Shown here piece by piece: positions 20,496 through 30,523 of a stretch of DNA of 30,597 bases. The notes beneath the pieces were generated by a model. That model was not told the origin of the DNA. It did no database searches and saw nothing but the letters and a program-made list of their open reading frames with translations. The stretch lies in the sequence record NC_049393.1; one strand, given 5' to 3'. How positions within the stretch are numbered: position 1 is the stretch's first letter; each line of letters begins with the position of its first letter. Both the position numbers and the translations under genes were made by a program. This DNA is from Escherichia phage ESSI2_ev040.

Positions 20496-22517
20496 CTACA
20501 ACCACCCCGGCCACAGCTCCTGTAATGGCTCGTTTTGAGTCTCTTTAAGCCGCCCGTTGCGGTATATCAGTGCGCCCTGACCAAATATCAAACCACTACC
20601 CCGCAGGAGAATGGCTATTTCTTCATCAGAACCATCAAAACCCCGACTGCGTAATTCCAGTTTTAACCGTCTGCGGGTTCCCCCCTCCGTACAGTTATTG
20701 ACAGAACTCCAAGGGGCGGCGTTGCCGCCAGAAAACCCCGCCTCCGCTGGCGCTTCGGCCAACTTCGCAACCTTTTGCCACTTAACCAGACGGGTGCAAA
20801 CTTCTGAATCAGGAACCAAAGGAGAATAAACACCCTGTACGCGCTGCACGTCCTCCGCGTATTCGTTGCCTTGTTCCGTAATTTCATAGGCCAGACGAAC
20901 AACCAGATCTCGGCGGGCAACCAGTGCACCTCCCTGCGCCTGGGTATATGCAGCCCAGTCCCCGACATCAGCAGCGGCCAGAACCGCATCCATTCTGCGA
21001 TCTGTCAGTACCTGATCCCGCAAACGACGCAGCTCACGCCAGACGGTTACCGGCGCACCACCAATCTGCTGAAACTGGCGAATACGCCAGCGTGAAGCCC
21101 ACGCGGAAACGGACTTAGCCATATCACGCAGGTTTTCGCCGGTTTCTTCGTCCTGCTCACCATCCAGCGCAAAACCATCAATATTTTTTGAAATGTATTT
21201 CGCGATGTAGCCCGTGGCCGAACCTTTGGCGGGATCGATAGCTTCAACATGAAAACGCGCCTTCAGCGCCTTTTCAGATTGCAGTTCTTCAGAATCGGTA
21301 ATTCTGGCGTGATAGCAAAGAATATCGCGTACCGTGTCCACGTCCTGCGGACGCATAAAAAGCAACATATGCCAGTGCGGTGTCCCGTCATGGTGAGGCT
21401 CAACAACCCGAAACCCAAAGACATGAATACCCGCACGCGAGATCGCTGCGCGTGCTTTTGCCCATACGCCGCATAAATAGCGCTGGGTATCCTGCGGCGT
21501 ACATCCATCCCATTGCGATACAAAGCCACCTTTGCTGTGTACTGCGTGGAAACGTGATGGCGCAGTGATGGTGTAAAACTCACCGGCCAGCCCTTCTTCA
21601 TTGGCCATATCTTCAAACCCCCGCATTCTTACCATTAGTTCACATCGACGGATCGCCGGATTTGCAACGCTGCGGTGCACCATGCTGTCCAGTGCAATGC
21701 GCAGCCCCTCATCATTCAGCAGATCAAACTTTTTAAAGAACTCCAGATTCCGCTTTTTCTGGTCTATCCATTCGCCCAGTGTTTTGCGGGATACATAAGC
21801 GCTGGCCGCTTTTTGTACCTGTCCCACCGCGATGGCCATATGTTCGCGCTGTGTATCACGCGCACGTTTAAGACGCAGGTACCACCATTCTGGCGCCATC
21901 ATGCGCAGTATCCCTGATTCCGCCTTACGCATTTCCAGTTGGCCTTCATTGGCTTCGTGTTCAGCCCAGTACGGCGGCTGGTTATTCAGCATCAGGCAAC
22001 ACGCACAAAGATGGCGGTATGATTCCAGGGTGCGGCGGTGCAGCTCTCTGGCGTCGTCAGTGCCGGAATCAAACTGTTCGGTGAAGTCATAAAGTGACTG
22101 GGAAATCCAGCCAGATACCTGGCCAGCCAGTTTTTTAAGATCAGGACGGTCCAGTGACGGCAAGCGCTCCAGCGACTTACCAAAAGGAAGATCAGCAGCG
22201 TCAGCGGCCAGCGAGTAACGCGCAGCCACTTTGCGCAGACGTGGCAATACACTCCCGCCGATAGTCTGGCGCAGGAATGTATTGGCACGGCGACGCCCGT
22301 CACGACCAGCAAACAGCTTTTCGTAACGACGGCCAAAATACCCGGCTAACCAGTCGGGTATCTCATGAAGGTACTGTGAGCGCCATTCGTAATCCTGCGG
22401 GTTAACCGCCCACAGGCGGCGCTCGGTGATCGTGGCGTCTGTAGGCGTACCCGGTGCGAACGTTTCACGCCGCCAGGTATCGACGGCGTGATGTTGGCCA
22501 TTGGCGACAGGAGTCAT
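20496..22517 (-). CDS. A: replication initiation protein (P2 gpA-like rolling-circle initiator)
   Basis: 673 aa; motif GYIAKYISKN with paired tyrosines typical of rolling-circle initiators; last gene of the early operon. Confidence 0.85.
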   Translation of the reverse strand: MTPVANGQHHAVDTWRRETFAPGTPTDATITERRLWAVNPQDYEWRSQYLHEIPDWLAGYFGRRYEKLFAGRDGRRRANTFLRQTIGGSVLPRLRKVAARYSLAADAADLPFGKSLERLPSLDRPDLKKLAGQVSGWISQSLYDFTEQFDSGTDDARELHRRTLESYRHLCACCLMLNNQPPYWAEHEANEGQLEMRKAESGILRMMAPEWWYLRLKRARDTQREHMAIAVGQVQKAASAYVSRKTLGEWIDQKKRNLEFFKKFDLLNDEGLRIALDSMVHRSVANPAIRRCELMVRMRGFEDMANEEGLAGEFYTITAPSRFHAVHSKGGFVSQWDGCTPQDTQRYLCGVWAKARAAISRAGIHVFGFRVVEPHHDGTPHWHMLLFMRPQDVDTVRDILCYHARITDSEELQSEKALKARFHVEAIDPAKGSATGYIAKYISKNIDGFALDGEQDEETGENLRDMAKSVSAWASRWRIRQFQQIGGAPVTVWRELRRLRDQVLTDRRMDAVLAAADVGDWAAYTQAQGGALVARRDLVVRLAYEITEQGNEYAEDVQRVQGVYSPLVPDSEVCTRLVKWQKVAKLAEAPAEAGFSGGNAAPWSSVNNCTEGGTRRRLKLELRSRGFDGSDEEIAILLRGSGLIFGQGALIYRNGRLKETQNEPLQELWPGWL

Positions 22518-23374
22518 GCGCAGGCCATCGCTATAGAATCAATCGGCGACTTCAGAATTAACTCTGCGGCAACTTTCTGGCTTGCAGCTGCGGCACCAAC
22601 ACTACGCGGGGCATTAATGCGAACGGCTTCAAATCCGGCGTACAGGTAATGCACCATTTCCAGATCGGCATTAGAGGCCACAACCGGCACACCTTTTCTG
22701 GCCAGACGGCGCAACTTACGCGCCAGCCTCCCCTGATCCATGTGCGAAAAACCGCGCTCATGGTAAGCGGTGAAATTGTCGCTTTCAGTCAGATAAGGCG
22801 GATCACAGTAAACAACGTCATTCCCGTCCCGAACCAAATCGAGCGTTTCTGAATAGTGGGCAGTAATGAACGTTGCGCGTTTTGCTTTTTCAGCAAAGGC
22901 GCGGATTTCATCAGCGGGGAAATAAGGCTTTTTGTACTTACCGAACGGGACGTTGAACTGGCCTCGACGGTTATACCGGCACAGACCATTGAAGCAGTGC
23001 CGGTTCAGGTACAGGAAACGCGCAGCAGCTTCTACAGATTCCGAACCAAAGGATTTACCTGACTGGTTGAAAGCATCCCGCACAGCATAATAGAAAACTG
23101 CGCGGCTTTCTTCATCACCTAACGAACCGGCAGTAAACAGACTTTCCAGCTCATTGAGCAGCGCATCAGTGTGATACGCCATCGCCTTATAAAGATTAAC
23201 CAGATCAGGATTCACATCTGCGATCAGATACTCGTCATAATCCGTATTCATCATGACGGCGCAGGAACCTGCGAACGGCTCAACCAGGCGTTTACCTTCT
23301 GGAAGGTGCGGACGCAGCTTAGGCATAAGGCGGGCTTTGCTACCCACCCATTTAAGCGGAGTTTTAACGGCCAT
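22514..23374 (-). CDS. dam: DNA adenine methyltransferase (Dam-like, N6-adenine)
   Basis: EPFAGSCAV (AdoMet motif) and DPPY catalytic motif; GGAGG RBS before ATG 23374; stop overlaps the A start (ATGA). Confidence 0.85.
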
Positions 23375-23693
23375 AATGACCTCCGCCAACTAACGACTCT
23401 GTTACACCGTTTGAAATGATGTATTCCAGCACTTCAAGCGGTGACAGCGAACGGATAGATAAAACCACCCAATTTTCGGTATCAGCGATGATTTCATTCA
23501 CCGGCAACACATGGGTGATAACTGCCGCCCACTCTCGCCCGGTGTATTTCCCGTGCTTCCACTCGCACAATGAAAGAACATCACCGGTTTTATACCCGCG
23601 ATCATTTTTACGCAGTTCGGCCTTTTTCTGGCCAGCCACCACAGCATCAAGGTATTTCGGCGCAATTTTTACCGCATGGATTTTGATTATCAT
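23364..23693 (-). CDS. small PUA/ASCH-like protein (tentative)
   Basis: About 110 aa from ATG 23693 (ATGA overlap with the exonuclease stop); weak resemblance to ASCH/DUF3850-type proteins often found next to phage methyltransferases. Confidence 0.35.
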
Positions 23694-24286
23694 TTTGCAC
23701 CGCCTTGCGCTAAAGCTTTGATGACACCTAATGTCATTTTGCAATCAGCTAAAGCACGGTGTGCCTTCCCCTCGATCACAACTCCTTCATGCGCGGCGGC
23801 ATCAACTAACTTATGCCATTTATAACCGTGATATTTCCCCGGCTCGCCACGATATTCTGCATATAGTTTCATTGCGCAAACAGAATGAGCAGCAAGCATC
23901 CATGGCGCACCTTCAGAAGGTCTTCCATTCAATGCGTAGGTCTGACGAATTAACCGGAGATCATAATCGGCGTTATAGATAACAAAGCCAAAACGTCTAA
24001 TAAGTTCTTCCACTGCGCCGCATATATCTGTCCACGCAGGAGCATAGGCAACCATTTCATTTGTGATCCCATGAATGGCAATTGCTTCATCAGGAATAGG
24101 CTTAGTAGGTTTAACAAGCGTGTTAAGCAGAATAAATCCATGGCTATCAATGATGCATATTTCTACTATTTCTGCATCATCACCCAGCCCCGTGGTTTCG
24201 GTATCAATAAATAGGCGATTATCGTCAAGCCACTGTTGTGCTAACAGGCTGATAGAATACTTCAATTGCTTAGTATTCAATTCCAT
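23690..24286 (-). CDS. DnaQ-like 3'-5' exonuclease (DEDDh family)
   Basis: Exo I FIDTETTG, Exo II NADYD, Exo III HRALADC; AGGAGGT RBS 5 nt upstream of ATG 24286. Confidence 0.75.
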
Positions 24287-24510
24287 GCTGCACCTCCTTT
24301 GCTGCAAATCGCCGCTGCTTCTTCGCGGATCAACTCAACGATTTCCGTTGCGCTTAAACCTTCATTGGCCGCATGAGTGGCCAACTTATCCAGACGGGTG
24401 GAACACAGATCAGCAGCTGCGGCTTTACCTTCCTGCGTGGCTTTGGTGAGCATGGCCAGCAGGTCGGTGCCTGATTTTGTTGCGGGTAAATCCTGACGTG
24501 TCATGTGCAT
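24277..24510 (-). CDS. hypothetical early protein (77 aa)
   Basis: ORF in the early operon; no motif recognised. Confidence 0.4.
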   Translation of the reverse strand: MHMTRQDLPATKSGTDLLAMLTKATQEGKAAAADLCSTRLDKLATHAANEGLSATEIVELIREEAAAICSKGGAAWN

Positions 24511-24577
24511 TTTGGTTTCCTTAAGGCAAAAGAATCCCCGGCCACTTGAACCGTGGCCAAAAAATTCAGGCTGTTAA

Positions 24578-24979
24578 TTAGTGAAAAGTGGGTTGTACTG
24601 TGGCGGCTGAGTAGTTCGGTGCCGGAATCAGGTGCAGCTCATAGGTTGTCCGCCACCACTCCTGTATCAGCGCTATTATCTCGCCAATTCCCAACGCCCC
24701 GGCTGTATAGAAAATTGCACGAATCCCCGCCAGCGCTTCTATCTGTGCTTCTTTGCTTTCCGCTTCGCGATACACGCAGCACCAGAAAGCAGCATTGATC
24801 GCCAGCCAGTGACGCGGATTTGTCATGTGTTCAGTGTCATTGAAGAAGAACGGATGCAAAGCGATACGCCCATTTTTACTGGTGCTTTTCTCTGCAAACG
24901 CTAAAGCGTAGTTATGTGGGACGCCCCACACAGCCAGCTCTGCCCCCAACAATTTGCCCTCAACGGAAATAATGGTCAT
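24578..24979 (-). CDS. hypothetical early protein (133 aa)
   Basis: ORF in the early operon with 1-nt overlap to the upstream gene. Confidence 0.5.
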   Translation of the reverse strand: MTIISVEGKLLGAELAVWGVPHNYALAFAEKSTSKNGRIALHPFFFNDTEHMTNPRHWLAINAAFWCCVYREAESKEAQIEALAGIRAIFYTAGALGIGEIIALIQEWWRTTYELHLIPAPNYSAATVQPTFH

Positions 24980-25407
24980 TAGTGATTCCCCTGCTGCTGC
25001 AACTTATGGACGATATGAGGCGCGATCACCATCTGCACCCCGCTACTGCTATAAATTGGATGTACTTTTTTGATCGGGCGGTTCGCGGTGCGTTTCGAAA
25101 AATCGCTGTCACGTAAACTGCCGAAACCTTCAAACGTTAACCGCGCCCGTGAAATGCCCTGCCGCAGTTGAATCATGTCCCGATAGCCCAGACGTTCATA
25201 AAGCTCCCGCCAGCAGCACTTACTTAAATGGGCTTTAAATGCCCCGGTACCAGATGTAACCGCAGCAGCATGAAGCACTACGCCGCGCCACTCCGGTGTT
25301 AAGTTGTCCCACCATTCAGCGGCCTCGCTGCTTTCGCTGAAGTATTTGCGGCGGATCTGTTTTAAATGCTCCAGCCCGCGCTTTTGCTGTTCCTGGCTAA
25401 TAGCCAT
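24979..25407 (-). CDS. hypothetical early protein (142 aa)
   Basis: ORF in the early operon; no motif recognised. Confidence 0.5.
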   Translation of the reverse strand: MAISQEQQKRGLEHLKQIRRKYFSESSEAAEWWDNLTPEWRGVVLHAAAVTSGTGAFKAHLSKCCWRELYERLGYRDMIQLRQGISRARLTFEGFGSLRDSDFSKRTANRPIKKVHPIYSSSGVQMVIAPHIVHKLQQQGNH

Positions 25408-25624
25408 AGCGCCCCCCTATACATCCAACCAGGCGACGGGCTTTTGTAGACAAGAAACGCAAAATCACCCCGCTTTTCATCCGAACAGGCTCATGCGCAT
25501 TGAATTTATACGTGTGGCCTGGGTTCCAGCGCTGACCGTTCGGCAGTTCTATCCAGCCCGTTGAACCACTCGGCGACTGCATGGCTGGAGATTCTTTTTT
25601 CAGGTAAGTGACAAACGCTTTCAT
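25397..25624 (-). CDS. hypothetical early protein (75 aa), in the position of 186 fil/dhr-type genes
   Basis: Small ORF directly downstream of cII. Confidence 0.4.
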   Translation of the reverse strand: MKAFVTYLKKESPAMQSPSGSTGWIELPNGQRWNPGHTYKFNAHEPVRMKSGVILRFLSTKARRLVGCIGGRYGY

Positions 25625-25633
25625 GGTGTTCCC

Positions 25634-26137
25634 TCACATCAGGCCGGTGGCGTTGGTAGTGACCAGATCCACCGCAGCGGCCAGAACAGGCGCAGAGTGA
25701 ATACGGCTTTCAACGGTATAAGCCAGCACGGATAAGCTACGGATTGCATCGCGGGCACGATCCAGAATTTGAGTACGGCGGGCGGCGGTCATATGGCCAG
25801 TTGATACGGCTTCCCCAGCAATCGCGCCCACACACGCAGTAGCGCTCAACGCGCAAAATTGCATGTTGGCTTCAGTGGCGTTATTGACTGGAACGGAGGG
25901 CAAGCAGTTAATCTGCCCCAGCATCCCATCAAGCAAACGAGCATCTTCCGTGTAATCGGTGATAGCCAGCAGCTCGTCACAGGTCAGGCGGTGCGGTTGA
26001 ACCGGGTTCAACTTATTGCGCAGGATCTGCGGACGCATACCAACGGCAGCGGCCACATCTTCCAGATTGTGCGACAGCGCAAACGCTCGGCAAGCTGCAT
26101 CAAAATGTGCATGTTTGGAAGTTTGGTAATCAAACAT
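25634..26137 (-). CDS. cII: CII-like lysogeny establishment activator (186 CII family)
   Basis: N-terminus MFDYQTSKHAHFDAACRAF...LRNKLNP resembles 186 CII as recalled; ATG 26137 with GAGGG RBS (track start 26146 is GTG). Confidence 0.7.
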   Translation of the reverse strand: MFDYQTSKHAHFDAACRAFALSHNLEDVAAAVGMRPQILRNKLNPVQPHRLTCDELLAITDYTEDARLLDGMLGQINCLPSVPVNNATEANMQFCALSATACVGAIAGEAVSTGHMTAARRTQILDRARDAIRSLSVLAYTVESRIHSAPVLAAAVDLVTTNATGLM

Positions 26138-26169
26138 AGTCAGCACCCTCTCTGCGTTTCAAAATCGAA

Positions 26170-26391
26170 TCAGTTAAGTACGATGTTGCAACCCGCGAGG
26201 GCGTCTATGGTCAGAGCCGCGATATTGATCATGACTTTTTCACGCCCCATATCTTTGCGAAGGCGGTGACGAGGCAAGCGGCCATCTTTCAACATCGCGT
26301 CAACGGTATCTTCTGGTAAACCAGTGAGTTCGATGTATTTATCTTTTGAGATAGAAGGGACGGGTAGATTGATTGAAATGTTAGTGGTCAT
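26170..26391 (-). CDS. apl: Apl/Cox-family excisionase and switch regulator
   Basis: 73 aa with HTH-like segment YIELTGLPEDTVDAMLKDGRLP; first gene of the early operon, divergent from cI. Confidence 0.55.
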   Translation of the reverse strand: MTTNISINLPVPSISKDKYIELTGLPEDTVDAMLKDGRLPRHRLRKDMGREKVMINIAALTIDALAGCNIVLN

Positions 26392-26526
26392 AGTGCAAGA
26401 TTCCTCGCTTGGAAGTTAACCGTGGCTAGCGGTGTTAAAAGGTGAACAACCTGTTTTGGAATGTTCGCCTGCAAAATAACTTTCCAAATGCGAAGTGTCA
26501 ACCAATAACTTTCCCGAGGCGGAATT
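26392..26526. promoter_or_regulatory. lysis-lysogeny switch region between apl and cI, with direct repeats AATAACTTTCC at 26475-26485 and 26504-26514
   Basis: Intergenic region between divergent apl and cI; 11-bp direct repeats and TTTTGGAA/TTCCAAA imperfect inverted repeat seen directly. Confidence 0.55.
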
Positions 26527-27147
26527 ATGGATCTCAAAAACGGAGGCCAGGCAGTTATAACCAGGCTCCTTGAAGCTTATGGATTTAAGACAAGGCAGGC
26601 TTTATGCGACCAATTGAAAGTATCAACAAGCACCATGGGAACGAGATGGATGCGTGATGTATTCCCAGCTGACTGGGTTATACAGTGCACAATCGAAACT
26701 GGTGCATCAGTAGAATGGCTATCGTTCGGAACAGGCGAGAAATTTCCCAACGGAACCAGCAAAAACGCAAATGAGAATGAAAATTCCGCAAATGAGAACT
26801 TGTTAGGTGATGTTGTTTCTGTTACCCGAAAAAAGGTAATAGATGGAAATTTATACGATTCTAATTTTTACATGCTCGACAAAGCCATGCTCCCATCCCA
26901 CCTCAGCAAACCCATTATTATTGTGGATGATGATGTCAGCTACTTAGCCGAGCAGAAAAATGATGAATTAACAGACGGTACATGGCTTGTTGAAATTGAA
27001 GGGCAAGTGAGCATAAAAGAGCTAATACGCATTCCAGTAGGCAGGGTTCGTGTAACCTCAGTGCCTGGTAGCGCTAGTTTTGAGTGCGGTATTGATGACT
27101 TAAAACCTATCGCAAAATGCCACTACTACCTGCTGACAGATGTTTGA
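26527..27147 (+). CDS. cI: CI immunity repressor (186 CI family)
   Basis: N-terminal LLEAYGF and ETGASVEWLSFGTGE motifs resemble the 186 CI repressor N-terminal domain; upstream of int on the same strand as in 186. Confidence 0.8.
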   Translation: MDLKNGGQAVITRLLEAYGFKTRQALCDQLKVSTSTMGTRWMRDVFPADWVIQCTIETGASVEWLSFGTGEKFPNGTSKNANENENSANENLLGDVVSVTRKKVIDGNLYDSNFYMLDKAMLPSHLSKPIIIVDDDVSYLAEQKNDELTDGTWLVEIEGQVSIKELIRIPVGRVRVTSVPGSASFECGIDDLKPIAKCHYYLLTDV

Positions 27148-27225
27148 TCGAGAGTGAAACAAACATTGACACTGTATAAATAAACAGTGAATCATACCCC
27201 TATAGCAAGTAATAAGGGGTATTGA

Positions 27226-28275
27226 ATGGCTATTCGTAAACTTGAAACGGGTAAATGGCTCTGTGAATGCTACCCTTCCGGACGTTCTGGGCGCAGGGTA
27301 CGAAAACAATTTGCAACCAAAGGTGAGGCAATGGCCTTTGAGCGCCACACAATGGATGAAGCCGCGTCTAAACCCTGGCTGGGGGATGTTGTTGATCGCC
27401 GCTCTTTAAAAGACATTGTAAACCTCTGGTATAAACTGCATGGCATATCTCTTACGGCTGGCGAACACGTATATGAAAAACTACTGCTGATCGTGGACGC
27501 ACTAGGAAACCCTCTGGCTACATCGCTAACCCCAAAAATGTTTGCTCATTACCGCGATAAACGCCTAACCGGAGAGATTTATTTCAGCGAAAAATGGAAG
27601 AATGGCGCTAGCCCTGTAACGGTTAATCTTGAGCAAAGTTATTTAAGCGGTGCCTTTAGTGAACTGATTCGCTTGGGTGAATGGCTTCAGCCAAACCCTC
27701 TTGAAAACATGCGAAAATTTACCATTGCTGAAAAGGAAATGGCCTGGCTGACACATGAACAGATTGCTGAACTTCTGTATGACTGCCAGCGTCAGAACAA
27801 GCTGTTGACGCTGGTTGTGAAGATTTGCCTCAGTACAGGGGCAAGGTGGAGAGAGGCCGTCAATCTGACAAGGTCTCAGGTAACGAAGTACCGCATCACT
27901 TTCACCAGAACGAAGGGAAAGAAAAACAGAAGCATCCCTATCAGCAAGGAGCTATATGAAGAGATCACCGTGCTGAAGGGGTTTAAGTTTTTTGATGATT
28001 ACTATTTTCAATTTGCATCAGTGATGGATAAAACTTCCATCATTCTGCCGCGAGGCCAGCTAACGCACGTTCTTCGCCACACCTTTGCTGCTCACTTTAT
28101 GATGTCCGGAGGAAACATACTCGCCCTTCAAAAAATACTGGGGCACCACGATATAAAAATGACTATGCGCTATGCCCACCTCGCGCCAGATCACCTTGAA
28201 ACTGCGTTAAGGTTTAACCCCTTAGCTACTATGCAAAATGGCGACAAAATGGCGGCAGCGGTTGCCACTCCCTAA
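27226..28275 (+). CDS. int: tyrosine integrase (P2/186-type)
   Basis: 349 aa; C-terminal catalytic region with HVLRHTFA and HHDIKMTMRYAHL (conserved His/Arg/Tyr). Confidence 0.9.
   Translation: MAIRKLETGKWLCECYPSGRSGRRVRKQFATKGEAMAFERHTMDEAASKPWLGDVVDRRSLKDIVNLWYKLHGISLTAGEHVYEKLLLIVDALGNPLATSLTPKMFAHYRDKRLTGEIYFSEKWKNGASPVTVNLEQSYLSGAFSELIRLGEWLQPNPLENMRKFTIAEKEMAWLTHEQIAELLYDCQRQNKLLTLVVKICLSTGARWREAVNLTRSQVTKYRITFTRTKGKKNRSIPISKELYEEITVLKGFKFFDDYYFQFASVMDKTSIILPRGQLTHVLRHTFAAHFMMSGGNILALQKILGHHDIKMTMRYAHLAPDHLETALRFNPLATMQNGDKMAAAVATP
28239..28260 (+). repeat. 22-bp direct repeat copy 1 (TGGCGACAAAATGGCGGCAGCG) inside the int 3' end; copy 2 at 28422-28443
   Basis: 21/22 identity between the two copies, seen directly. 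Confidence 0.8.
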
Positions 28276-28337
28276 CCTTTAATACTCCTAACTACTCTTT
28301 TAACTTATTGAGTTTAAAGCAAGTAATTGTTTTTCCT

Positions 28338-28366
28338 AACCCATTTATATAAATGGGTTTTTTGTT
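28338..28366 (+). terminator. rho-independent terminator after int
   Basis: Perfect 22-nt palindrome AACCCATTTATATAAATGGGTT followed by TTTTTTGTT. Confidence 0.7.
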
Positions 28367-28421
28367 GCCTGTTATATTAGTCTCTTAAAACCAACCACTT
28401 ACCCCCTCTCACTAAAGCCAT

Positions 28422-28443
28422 TGGCGACAAAATGGCGACAGCG
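28422..28443 (+). repeat. 22-bp direct repeat copy 2 (TGGCGACAAAATGGCGACAGCG) spanning the Abi_C-like ORF start
   Basis: 21/22 identity to 28239-28260; candidate att core or recombination scar. Confidence 0.8.
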
Positions 28444-29286
28444 TACAAACACGTTGATGGAGTCTATATGGGACGACAAATTCCGCAGCCAGTCATTTCA
28501 GTTTTATCTGACCACATGGCGGCAGTTGAAACACACGCAACCATGAATAGTTTATTCATGTACGCAGACGCTCCAGGGGATGCTCCAGATTTAGCAAAAC
28601 CAGCAAAGGCGCAGGATTGGCTTAGAAGAATCAACAAAGAATGTGATGACCCACTCGCAATTCTTGGTCGATTGATTGAAGGCTATATGGAAGCTGACCT
28701 GCCTAAAGGCAGCGTATTCAGTTGGGAGCAACCTAAGGTTGATTTCATAGAAAAGATGACTGATTTGCTTGGTCGGTACGGCCTGCGGTATCTAACTGGA
28801 GGTCATATTTCTGATGGGGCATCGCTTACTTCGGTTACTCTCAAAGAAGCGATTGGAAAACGCAACATACCTGCTGTTGAAATGGAGTTTTCCAGAGCGC
28901 TTGAAAATATCCACACTGATCCACGAGAAGCTGTCTCCGCAGCTTGTAACATTATGGAATCAACCTTTAAGGTTTACATCGCCGATGAGAAGCTGCCCAC
29001 CCCTGCTAAACAAGATTTGCAGGGACTCTGGAAAGTTGTCCGTGAATCCTTGGGGCTAGATACTAAAGCCGTTGAAGATGAAGACCTTAAACGTATTTTG
29101 AGTGGCTTATATTCGTTAACTGATGGGATCGGAGCTTTAAGAACTCATGCAAGTTCTGCCCATGGAGCCGGGAGAAAGATATATAACTTAAAACCTCGCC
29201 ATGCTCGGTTAGCTATAAATGCAGCACATACGTTAACTATGTATATCCTTGAATCTTGGGATGAGCAGAAACAAAAGAAATCTTAA
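28432..29286 (+). CDS. Abi_C-domain-like protein (putative abortive infection / exclusion protein); alternative start ATG 28468 has a GGAG RBS
   Basis: C-terminal LRTHASSAHGAG...KPRHARLAINAAHTLTMYILE resembles the Abi_C domain as recalled; AT-richer than the phage core; own terminator downstream. Confidence 0.45.
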   Translation: MATAYKHVDGVYMGRQIPQPVISVLSDHMAAVETHATMNSLFMYADAPGDAPDLAKPAKAQDWLRRINKECDDPLAILGRLIEGYMEADLPKGSVFSWEQPKVDFIEKMTDLLGRYGLRYLTGGHISDGASLTSVTLKEAIGKRNIPAVEMEFSRALENIHTDPREAVSAACNIMESTFKVYIADEKLPTPAKQDLQGLWKVVRESLGLDTKAVEDEDLKRILSGLYSLTDGIGALRTHASSAHGAGRKIYNLKPRHARLAINAAHTLTMYILESWDEQKQKKS

Positions 29287-29341
29287 CTACATGTTAGACA
29301 ACATGTTTTTCAGTTTTGAAATTATGTCATCTTCTATGAAT

Positions 29342-29376
29342 CCCGCGCCAGTTCTCGCTTTGCGGGTTTTTCTTTG
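29342..29376 (+). terminator. putative rho-independent terminator after the Abi_C-like gene
   Basis: GC stem CCCGC(G)...(T)GCGGG followed by TTTTTCTTTGTT. Confidence 0.5.
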
Positions 29377-29632
29377 TTCGCCTCACCTCAAGATTTTGAT
29401 CTTCTGGCCTAACATAAAATAAATAATACCATTATTTATCAGATAGTTATTATTACTTATCGATCCTCCGTAGATCTATAAAAATGGAAAAAGCTGAAAT
29501 TCTTTTCAATCTTTTCAGTTACAGTTCTCCAGCAAGCCTCCAGCAGTGGCGCGGCCTAGCGATACCGTTTGTAGAAAAATAAAACTGAAAAAATTTCCAG
29601 ATCCAGAAACCGCAGGCGGGTGCCAGAGTAGA

Positions 29633-29968: not shown

Positions 29969-30523
29969 ATGAGCAGCAGCAAAAAAACGCACTACGAGGA
30001 AATGAAGCAGTTATTGTGCGCGGACATACTGAGTAACAGTAAAAAATTCTCATGGAGAAGAATCATACTACGTTGCTGGAGACAGCCCGGATACCGGTTC
30101 ATGTGTTGGTGGAGAATAGCGAATTGCCTTTACTGCCAGGGTGGGAGAGCAAGAGTGAAATGGGCGCGAAGAATCCACCGGAGACTTGTTTCAAAATATA
30201 ATACTGATATTGGGTTGGGGGCACAGATCGGGGAAAAATTCAAAATTTATCACTTCGTTGGAATAGTCATTTGTCCCCAGGCTGTGATTGGTAAGAATGT
30301 GCGTATCCGTCAAAACATAACAATTGGATTAAAAACAGTTGAGGGAATCAAAGCCATCAGGATCGGAGACAATGTCGAGATTGGTGCAAATTCGTGCATC
30401 ATCGGTGATGACCTGACTATTGGTGATAACGTGACAATTGGCGCTATGTCATTTGTTAACAGAGACGTCCCCGCCAATAGCGTTTATATAACCCGCAAAA
30501 GCCATACAATCACCACTGCCTGA
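29969..30523 (+). CDS. hexapeptide-repeat acetyltransferase (left-handed beta-helix family, WbbJ/WcaB-like)
   Basis: 184 aa; repeated [LIV]-G-x-x-x-x hexapeptide units (IGKNVRI, IGDNVEIG, IGDNVTIG); AT-rich, outside the phage core. Confidence 0.6.
   Translation: MSSSKKTHYEEMKQLLCADILSNSKKFSWRRIILRCWRQPGYRFMCWWRIANCLYCQGGRARVKWARRIHRRLVSKYNTDIGLGAQIGEKFKIYHFVGIVICPQAVIGKNVRIRQNITIGLKTVEGIKAIRIGDNVEIGANSCIIGDDLTIGDNVTIGAMSFVNRDVPANSVYITRKSHTITTA

Follow-up and report, generated by a model that had tools for sequence, protein, structure and literature searches.

The Escherichia phage ESSI2_ev040 (NC_049393.1) carries four genes that follow one another with overlapping stops and starts and encode a DEDDh exonuclease (exo), a small DUF3850/ASCH protein, a Dam-type methyltransferase and the replication initiator gpA. 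This arrangement raises the question of whether the overlaps mark a set of genes that act together, or reflect the way in which the phage organizes its operons. The whole stretch of 30,597 nucleotides is referred to as the window, and all coordinates are those of the window.

Gene content and operon setting

Pfam searches confirmed all four gene identities proposed in the initial annotation, at the following positions and on the minus strand. The neighbouring features used in this analysis are listed with them.

20496..22517, minus strand: gpA rolling-circle replication initiator, 673 aa (Pfam Phage_GPA, E=7e-105)
22514..23374, minus strand: orphan Dam-type (D12, alpha-group) N6-adenine DNA methyltransferase, 286 aa (Pfam, E=1e-66)
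23364..23693, minus strand: DUF3850/ASCH (PUA-like) small protein, 109 aa (PF12961, E=6e-23; ASCH, E=4e-5)
23690..24286, minus strand: stand-alone DEDDh (DnaQ/ExoX-like) 3'-5' exonuclease, 198 aa (Pfam RNase_T, PF00929, E=1e-18)
23375..24271, minus strand: exo+DUF3850 cassette, 897 bp, absent from closely related E. coli prophages
24277..24510, minus strand: DUF2732 protein, 77 aa, first gene past the terminator (Pfam PF10809, E=3e-12)
24535..24563, minus strand: terminator-like hairpin with a T-run, within the 67 nt that separate orf133 from the DUF2732 gene
26473..26501, minus strand: early-promoter-like site TTGACA-17-TATTTT, 5' of the cox/apl-like gene (consensus match only)

The locus with its flanks (window 22300-24600) is 100% identical to the RefSeq phage ESSI2_ev015, and 25.4 kb of the window shows 98.6% identity to that phage, from which it differs in the immunity and integrase region. 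The record of ESSI2_ev015 annotates the four genes as methyltransferase, RNA-binding protein, exonuclease subunit and nicking protein. The locus is already deposited and annotated.

The position of the promoter-like site matches that of pR of phage 186, and this site would be the source of the transcript reaching the exo, DUF3850, Dam and gpA genes. The terminator-like hairpin corresponds in position to tR1 of phage 186, and also to the putative terminator after gene B of P2. The DUF2732 protein encoded just past it is homologous to Orf79 of 186 and Orf80 of P2. A consensus scan of the minus strand gave promoter-like hits at 26501 and 26162 only, and none from 22500 to 24600. A moron would have its own promoter and terminator and be expressed from the repressed prophage; on the consensus scan, this block does not fit that description. 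The earlier view that the genes are not random morons agrees with these results, as the block has no internal promoter-like site and a tR1-like terminator precedes it in the early operon.

Overlapping junctions and the translation of gpA

The DUF2732 and exo genes overlap by 10 nt (24286-24277, ATGGAATTGA), and would shrink to a 4-nt TTGA only with the RefSeq start, a TTG at 24280. The exo start assigned by PGAP is an ATG located 6 nt past a AAAGGAGG Shine-Dalgarno (SD) sequence. The junctions of exo with DUF3850 (23693-23690) and of Dam with gpA (22517-22514) are both ATGA, and DUF3850 and Dam overlap by 11 nt (23374-23364, ATGGCCGTTAA). The locus had been described as having four consecutive ATGA-type overlaps. 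Four consecutive out-of-frame start/stop overlaps are indeed present, but a literal ATGA occurs at only two of them.

As annotated in RefSeq, the near-identical phage has 39 co-directional junctions; 22 overlap, ten of these by 4 nt. The genome has three further runs of four overlaps in succession, and one of these, among the tail genes, consists entirely of 4-nt overlaps. The four-overlap run is no more than the genomic background: the stops and starts at exo-DUF3850-Dam-gpA overlap because the operons of this phage are built that way. This corrects the inference drawn from the overlaps, as ATGA-type overlaps are the default packing in compact phage operons and alone provide no evidence of shared function.

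The junction into gpA has properties of its own. The gpA start is embedded in the Dam stop, and the SD of gpA (-2.6 kcal/mol) ranks 41st of 43 genes, so that gpA has practically no SD. The SDs of exo and Dam are strong, that of exo being the strongest in the genome. The SDs of gpA are also weak in relatives (median, -4.7 kcal/mol), where a comparison of gpA and Dam SD strengths is weakly discriminating, because the starts there were called heuristically as the nearest in-frame start to the upstream stop. With starts called in this way, the last gene ahead of gpA overlaps or adjoins it in 28 of 37 related prophage loci, whatever its family (4-nt overlap in 17, 8-nt in 5, 14-nt in 1, and a gap of 0-1 nt in 5). 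The families coupled to gpA in this way are Dam, TraR, DUF2732, PAPS-reductase-like and DUF5405-like.

The coupling geometry of phage 186, a stop/start overlap without an independent ribosome-binding site, is therefore present at gpA. According to the phage 186 record (GenBank U32222), the A protein appears to be translated only when orf84 is translated to its end, and an annotated terminator, tM1, acts when A translation is absent. A paper by Sivaprasad et al. belongs, by its title, among the phage 186 precedents. A scan of the 5' end of gpA did not find a terminator like tM1. A short GC hairpin without a T-run was noticed there by eye and is not claimed as a terminator. The proposed translational linkage into gpA is plausible from the ATGA junction, the weak gpA SD and the statement in the 186 record. 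Lacking a usable ribosome-binding site, gpA would rely on ribosomes that have just finished the upstream gene, whatever it is, and would be translated by termination-reinitiation at the ATGA. The coupling would then be a property of gpA expression, and is no sign that the cargo genes cooperate.

The three accessory proteins and their slot

The phage Dam matched E. coli Dam (PDB 2G1P) with E=5e-61. The two proteins have the D12-class fold and motifs in common, and the phage protein contains EPFAGS (AdoMet-binding, FxGxG-type) and YCDPPY (catalytic DPPY). The likeness includes the aligned GATC-contacting residues, of which those corresponding to K9, N120, L122, R124 and P134 are unchanged and the counterpart of Y119 is F, and the phage Dam is predicted to be GATC-specific. 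It differs from the E. coli enzyme in being phage-borne, orphan and located within a lytic operon. No endonuclease partner is encoded nearby, the neighbours being DUF3850 and gpA, and without an adjoining restriction endonuclease gene the protein is an orphan (solitary) methyltransferase; 'orphan methyltransferase' was also its best PADLOC model. A genome scan revealed no avoidance or clustering of GATC as a clue to Dam function, with 133 sites observed against 144 expected (ratio, 0.92) in an even distribution. Dam made together with the replication initiator would be likely to methylate the 133 GATC sites per genome before packaging. Bobonis et al. describe host Dam as rate-limiting for high-copy DNA and call phage Dam anti-restriction. 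A need for the phage enzyme would arise if host Dam were limiting during rapid genome replication, and methylation would protect the DNA against GATC-directed, methylation-sensitive restriction and possibly also MutH nicking.

The DUF3850 protein scored 81.2 bits against PF12961 (cut-off, 22.9) and 24.8 bits against ASCH (cut-off, 21.2), which places it in both families, and it matched PDB 3iuw with E=2e-8. Its translation contains G-Q-K-K-A-E-L-R, fitting GxKxxExR, reportedly the signature given by Iyer et al. (2006) for the ASCH/PUA-like superfamily. The protein has 48% identity to P2 Orf91, which is also small and ASCH-like. In P2 the gene follows gene A, whose stop it overlaps by 4 nt, whereas here it is upstream of gpA, and P2 has neither Dam nor the exonuclease. 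A role as a partner of Dam was considered and rejected, since P2 has DUF3850 without Dam and no consistent link between the two was found. DUF3850 recurs beside gpA, on either side, in P2 and Yersinia phages. The family is widespread in unrelated phages, beside helicases, tail genes and other genes. We infer that the protein is a small PUA-like nucleic-acid-binding protein.

The exonuclease has the Exo I (DxE), Exo II (D) and Exo III (H-x4-D) motifs and the RNase H-like fold of the DEDDh family. Its catalytic residues D28 and E30 (DTET), D109 (NADYD), and H176 and D181 (HRALAD) are invariant in 29-32 homologues. The AF2 model had a pLDDT of 92 and matched DEDDh structures with a Foldseek probability of 1.0; the top fold match was the Pol III epsilon catalytic domain (2ido, TM 0.69-0.77), and the best sequence match was ExoX (1e-8). 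The nearest sequences and folds are those of DNA exonucleases, namely Pol III epsilon, ExoX, and the exonuclease domains of DinG and PolC. The best 50 PDB fold matches comprise epsilon, ExoX, DinG, PolC, 3'hExo/ERI, RNase T, TREX and ExoI, with no oligoribonuclease among them. The protein is not closest to Orn/NrnC-type enzymes and is not placed with the oligoribonuclease/nanoRNase type. The idea that it degrades nucleotide signals like an oligoribonuclease is unsupported, as its closest sequences and folds are DNA exonucleases.

The fold and catalytic residues are the same as in ExoX and epsilon. The phage protein differs from both by an extra conserved N-terminal helix (residues 5-21, with W19 invariant) and by lacking their C-terminal partner-binding regions. 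In DnaQ epsilon, a C-terminal segment binds the PHP domain of alpha, and a clamp-binding motif follows the catalytic domain. The last helix of the phage protein spans residues 178-193 and the chain ends five residues later, leaving no C-terminal extension; its alignment to DnaQ covers the catalytic domain only. Without this extension, the protein does not fit the description of an epsilon proofreading subunit. Its homologues include 186 Orf81 (73% identity) and N15 gp41, and the family also occurs in N15 and VHML-type phages without gpA. The 186 record describes Orf81 and the neighbouring ORFs as 'not essential'. The protein is best seen as a probable catalytic-domain-only DNA 3'-5' exonuclease of the epsilon/ExoX type, presumably dispensable, which most likely would trim DNA 3' ends in phage DNA metabolism.

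Closely related E. coli prophages lack the cassette and have the arrangement DUF2732-Dam-gpA, as seen in relatives with a 95% identical Dam. The breakpoints of the cassette are the SD/start-codon regions of exo and Dam. The GC contents of its two genes are 43.7% and 47.3%, against 51-55% in the flanking genes, and the GC3 of exo is 36%, against 50-58% in its neighbours. The whole trio occurs in 3 of 5426 complete E. coli genomes. In about 42 enterobacterial gpA loci, Dam was found in about 27, DUF3850 in 7, PAPS-reductase-like and C5-MTase genes in 2 each, and exo in 0. Dam is directly before gpA in 17 loci; it is absent from about 15 of the 42, two of which retain nothing but a deletion scar. 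None of the 79 species-representative gpA loci had exo, as far as the family seeds used could detect it (very divergent exonucleases would be missed), and 7 had DUF3850. The content of the slot varies among P2, 186, EtG, MHG75, SEN8, ev129 and this phage; DUF3850 is missing from the exo-bearing 186, EtG and SEN8, and exo from P2, which has DUF3850. Across the sequences compared, exo, DUF3850 and Dam are present or absent independently. The slot fillers in relatives include a TraR/DksA zinc finger, DUF5405, the DEDDh exonuclease, DUF3850, Dam, a C5-methyltransferase and a PAPS-reductase-like protein. We therefore consider it probable, as a joint reading, that the interval belongs to a 186/P2-family temperate phage (Peduoviridae, Quadragintavirus-like), in whose early lytic operon it forms the promoter-distal part, and that the region between the conserved DUF2732 gene and the essential gpA is a mosaic accessory slot, occupied here by exo, DUF3850 and Dam.

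The initial annotation took the coupling to argue for joint function of exo, DUF3850, Dam and gpA in an early module for replication-linked methylation or proofreading, or for anti-restriction. In this reading, as developed here, translational coupling would hold the products at a fixed stoichiometry. This reading can point to the four consecutive overlaps, to Dam being directly before gpA in many relatives, to DUF3850 often adjoining gpA or Dam, and to exo, DUF3850 and Dam all being nucleic-acid enzymes or binders. Published surveys report that the members of overlapping gene pairs are often subunits of complexes (PMC10666635), and the frequent Dam-gpA adjacency may mean that methylation and replication initiation are functionally linked, beyond the site simply being permissive for insertion. 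However, overlaps are the norm in this genome, the gene adjoining gpA is coupled whatever its family, and exo and Dam each start behind a strong SD. The genes occur independently, with exo in none of the 79 loci and Dam missing from about 15 of the 42 (in two, with only the scar); close natural relatives keep Dam-gpA without exo and DUF3850; and the homologues are non-essential in 186. A co-functional module is therefore unlikely.

Slightly less likely still is a counter-defence role, in which the exo+DUF3850 cassette would degrade, for example, nucleotide second messengers, retron msDNA or the 3' ends of other defence-associated DNA or RNA. Anti-defence genes are often mobile, AT-rich and patchy, as this cassette is, and it is probably expressed early; DEDDh domains occur in CRISPR-associated and candidate defence contexts (PADLOC hits); and DUF3850 is phage-enriched, the authors of a ParB-fold survey suspecting an anti-defence role for ParB-CTPase fusion proteins, including DUF3850 fusions. 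Against this, no homology was found to any characterised anti-defence protein, the exonuclease fold is nearest to DNA exonucleases, and exo and DUF3850 are not consistently paired. A literature search on DEDDh anti-defence and on 186 Orf81/CP81 found nothing relevant and no supporting study. The counter-defence/oligoribonuclease reading of exo was rejected in view of its DNA-exonuclease neighbours, the PADLOC hits being to generic DEDDh domains only. The least probable proposal, that exo is a phage-supplied proofreading subunit joining host Pol III in gpA-initiated rolling-circle replication, draws on the top structural match to epsilon, the PHROG name 'DNA polymerase exonuclease subunit' and the position of the gene within the replication operon, but exo has no counterpart of the alpha-binding segment or clamp-binding motif, matches ExoX better by sequence, is dispensable in 186, is absent from most gpA phages and belongs to a family found in phages without gpA, so that we rejected an epsilon substitute as the main reading.

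For the mosaic slot, we tentatively raise the further idea, which we regard as rather doubtful, that the site just upstream of gpA in Peduoviridae is a selected, 'insured' cargo site. As gpA would depend on upstream translation, cargo placed there would be assured of early expression and shielded from nonsense or polar decay, since a phage that stopped translating the cargo would no longer replicate. If true, this could explain the build-up of Dam, C5-methyltransferase and PAPS-reductase-like genes at this site as an exchangeable anti-restriction toolkit.

Comparison with related phages

The architecture of the locus is that of orf79-orf80-orf81-orf83-orf84-A in phage 186 (U32222), in which apl/cox, cII, fil, the terminator, DUF2732 and the accessory ORFs are followed by A. 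Phage 186 also has consecutive 4-nt overlaps into A, with TraR, DUF5405 and the PAPS-reductase-like Orf84 in place of DUF3850 and Dam. The phages ev015, ev129 and ESSI-2 were grouped here as Quadragintavirus and relatives. In ev129, the order exo-DUF3850-Dam is the same, but the exonuclease has diverged (52% identity) and an additional C5-methyltransferase gene separates Dam from gpA. In Cronobacter phage ESSI-2, a Dam with 83.5% identity adjoins the replication protein.

Fels-2, SEN8, SopEPhi, RE2010 and Klebsiella P2-like prophages have an orphan Dam before gpA, with about 50% protein identity, and no DUF3850. The order in SEN8 is TraR-exo-Dam-gpA. For Fels-2 and the Klebsiella phages, the features annotated at and next to the Dam match, which is what was compared, name TraR/DksA and no exonuclease. 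The locus points to no new kind of system. The comparative picture is that P2-family phages keep exchangeable DNA-modification cargo before an SD-less gpA, and that Dam, Dcm and PAPS-reductase-like genes recur there.

The gene block and its operon

Three genes, encoding a DEDDh exonuclease, a DUF3850/ASCH protein and a Dam-type methyltransferase, are located between a DUF2732 gene and the replication initiator gene gpA. The exonuclease, the ASCH-like protein, Dam and the gpA-like initiator had been recognized from the sequence alone in the initial annotation, and Pfam confirmed these four as well as DUF2732.

Genes of the block in order of transcription on the minus strand
24510-24277, minus strand, DUF2732 gene (Pfam 3e-12)
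24286-23690, minus strand, exonuclease, 198 aa (Pfam RNase_T 1e-18)
23693-23364, minus strand, DUF3850/ASCH protein, 109 aa (Pfam DUF3850 6e-23, ASCH 4e-5)
23374-22514, minus strand, Dam-type methyltransferase, 286 aa (Pfam MethyltransfD12 1e-66)
22517-20496, minus strand, gpA replication initiator, 673 aa (Pfam Phage_GPA 7e-105)

The interval with its flanks (22300-24600) matched Escherichia phage ESSI2_ev015, a member of the Peduoviridae (Quadragintavirus), at 100% identity; in that record the products are annotated as DNA methyltransferase, RNA-binding protein, DNA polymerase exonuclease subunit, DUF2732 protein and origin-nicking protein. The whole window showed 98.6% identity to ev015 over 25.4 kb (19-25438). 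The region from 25438 to 29487 (cII-distal, cox, CI, integrase) was diverged from or unrelated to ev015, and the comparison indicates a putative swap of the immunity and integration module between otherwise near-identical phages.

The locus is the phage 186 type of the P2-family early operon. Pfam detected cox/apl-, cII- and fil-like genes upstream of the block. Beyond these early genes are a divergent CI repressor gene and an integrase gene. A terminator-like hairpin at 24563-24535 matches the position of the phage 186 terminator tR1. Promoter-like matches in the scan were confined to 26501 and 26162, ahead of the genes resembling cox and cII, and none was found inside the block. Between fil and the hairpin, orf133 and orf142 (24578-25407) encode early-operon proteins with no Pfam or PADLOC match and with PHROGs of unknown function only; their position corresponds to that of dhr in 186 and gene B in P2. 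Two plus-strand genes downstream of the integrase, for an Abi_C/AbiJ-like abortive-infection protein (28432-29286; Pfam 5e-21, PADLOC AbiJ 3e-16) and a hexapeptide-repeat acetyltransferase (29969-30523), probably represent cargo for lysogenic conversion or defence at the end of the prophage.

The initial annotation described four consecutive ATGA-type overlaps. Four consecutive out-of-frame overlaps do exist, and a literal ATGA was read at only two of them, exonuclease/DUF3850 and Dam/gpA. The DUF2732/exonuclease junction is a 10-nt overlap, ATGGAATTGA, and the DUF3850/Dam junction an 11-nt overlap, ATGGCCGTTAA. For the exonuclease start, RefSeq selects a TTG, giving a TTGA overlap with DUF2732, and PGAP selects an ATG that sits behind the strongest Shine-Dalgarno (SD) site of the genome. 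Of the 39 co-directional junctions annotated in ev015, 22 are overlaps, 10 of them 4 nt long, and runs of four overlaps in a row are found at three other places, including one in the tail genes in which all four measure 4 nt. The chain of overlaps from the DUF2732 gene to gpA is thus not unusual for this genome, and the block is real but ordinary.

A mosaic slot before gpA

Our comparison covered 79 gpA loci of species-representative genomes, in which the ORFs upstream of gpA were classified by phmmer seeds and Pfam. The position between the DUF2732 gene and gpA varied in content among related phages.

Contents of the position between the DUF2732 gene and gpA
P2: DUF5405, TraR, DUF5405; DUF3850 (Orf91) after A
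186: TraR, exonuclease, DUF5405, PAPS-reductase-like
EtG: TraR, exonuclease, DUF5405
MHG75: TraR, exonuclease, one small ORF, DUF3850
SEN8: TraR, exonuclease, Dam
ev129: exonuclease (only 52% identity to that of the window), DUF3850, Dam, C5-methyltransferase

Among about 42 enterobacterial gpA loci, Dam was present in about 27, usually directly before gpA, DUF3850 in 7, and a PAPS-reductase-like gene and a C5-methyltransferase in 2 each; the phmmer seeds and Pfam detected no exonuclease in these loci. Several loci run DUF2732 or TraR straight into gpA. The position is best read as a slot for mosaic accessory genes within a 186-like phage's early operon, it seems to collect DNA-modification enzymes, and the exonuclease, DUF3850 and Dam genes are cargo independent of one another. 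A co-functional module of these three genes with gpA, as proposed in the initial annotation, is possible but unlikely, and the comparative data are contrary to it.

Two Pantoea prophages carry a remnant of about 100 nt between TraR and gpA (L021 5861-5968, L022 5855-5968), which starts ATGAGCACCATCC(T/G)GA and encodes MSTILRWAGSKS (L021) or MSTIRKWAGSKS (L022). It corresponds to the Dam N-terminus, and is therefore a deletion scar of a Dam gene lost from the slot. Tandem pairs before gpA, either Dam with a C5-cytosine methyltransferase or Dam with a PAPS-reductase-like protein of the 186 Orf84 family, were observed in ev129 (L002 3229-5087), Serratia (L044 3964-5705, L045 2918-4800) and Xenorhabdus (L029, L033).

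The intact trio of exonuclease, DUF3850 and Dam genes occurred in only 3 of 5426 complete E. coli genomes, and prophages with a 95%-identical Dam have the order DUF2732-Dam-gpA, which occurs naturally in strain CM2010-0578/1. Alignment placed the edges of the 897-bp exonuclease-DUF3850 indel exactly at the SD/start regions of the exonuclease and Dam genes. The exonuclease gene has a foreign composition, its GC being 43.7% as compared with 51-55% in neighbouring genes and its GC3 35.7%; this low GC content and the strongest SD fit a recent acquisition. A separately acquired, dispensable cassette is the best-supported reading of the exonuclease-DUF3850 pair.

Predicted functions of the three proteins

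Dam matched E. coli Dam (2G1P) at 5e-61, and retains the AdoMet motif, DPPY and the residues aligned to K9, N120, L122, R124 and P134, while the residue aligned to Y119 is F. The roles of these residues in the E. coli enzyme were reportedly described by Horton et al. in 2006. No endonuclease partner of Dam was found, the best PADLOC model being an orphan methyltransferase, and GATC was neither avoided nor clustered (133 observed vs 144 expected). The best-supported assignment is a predicted orphan GATC methylase, which would be co-expressed with replication. Bobonis et al. reported that for high-copy DNA the chromosomal Dam becomes limiting, described phage Dam enzymes as anti-restriction functions, and showed that Dam can set off the toxin-antitoxin system of a retron.

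The five DEDDh residues of the exonuclease are invariant across homologues. Pol III epsilon, ExoX and the exonuclease domains of DinG and PolC were the nearest folds to its confident model (pLDDT 92), at a TM of about 0.6-0.7; relatives that act on RNA ranked lower, and no oligoribonuclease was among the top 50 fold matches. The protein stops directly after the catalytic fold, and so has no counterpart of the tails through which epsilon and ExoX bind partners. Homologues are present in N15 and VHML/VP882-type phages, which are without gpA. A proofreading subunit, and a counter-defence role of the exonuclease-DUF3850 cassette, are possible but unlikely readings, each of which is opposed by comparative data. 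Residues 5-21 form a conserved N-terminal helix (A16, W19, L20; W19 invariant), which sequence alignments with epsilon or ExoX leave uncovered and which could be a partner-binding surface.

The DUF3850 protein matched the ASCH structure 3iuw at 2e-8 and has the GxKxxExR signature. Hundreds of unrelated phages carry DUF3850, in gene surroundings that vary, and its literature consists of one survey, on phage-enriched ParB-DUF3850 fusions. Its adjacency to gpA recurs among relatives on either side: upstream in the window (23364-23693) and in several Yersinia and Photorhabdus prophages, and downstream in P2, where orf91 (L004 4501-4830) overlaps the A stop by 4 nt.

Translation of gpA and the phage 186 precedent

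SD strength was calculated as the pairing of the 20 nt before each start with the anti-SD, and ranked among 43 genes. The gpA value was -2.6 kcal/mol (rank 41), and the exonuclease (-12.9, rank 1) and Dam (-10.2, rank 6) genes each have a strong site of their own. Across related loci the median gpA SD was also weak (-4.7 kcal/mol). In 37 related loci with an interpretable gpA junction, the preceding gene overlapped gpA by 4 nt in 17, by 8 nt in 5 and by 14 nt in 1, and a gap of 0-1 nt was found in 5. This geometry was the same for Dam, TraR, DUF2732, PAPS-reductase-like and DUF5405-like neighbours. The overlaps and the weak SD suggest that the coupling is a property of gpA, and translational chaining would arise from operon compaction together with dependence of gpA on upstream translation.

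The GenBank record of phage 186 has the same layout: tR1, Orf79 (DUF2732), Orf80 (TraR/DksA zinc finger), Orf81 (RNase_T exonuclease, 73% identity to that of the window), Orf83 (DUF5405), Orf84 (PAPS-reductase-like) and A, with 4-nt overlaps at the junctions from Orf80 to A. For Orf79-84 the record gives 'unknown function; not essential'. It states that translation of the A protein appears to need translation to the end of orf84, and annotates a terminator, tM1, expected to be active when A is untranslated. The arrangement in the window is itself deposited and annotated. The 186 statement on A translation reportedly derives from Sivaprasad et al. The key mechanistic feature of the exonuclease-DUF3850-Dam-gpA arrangement is already on record for 186.
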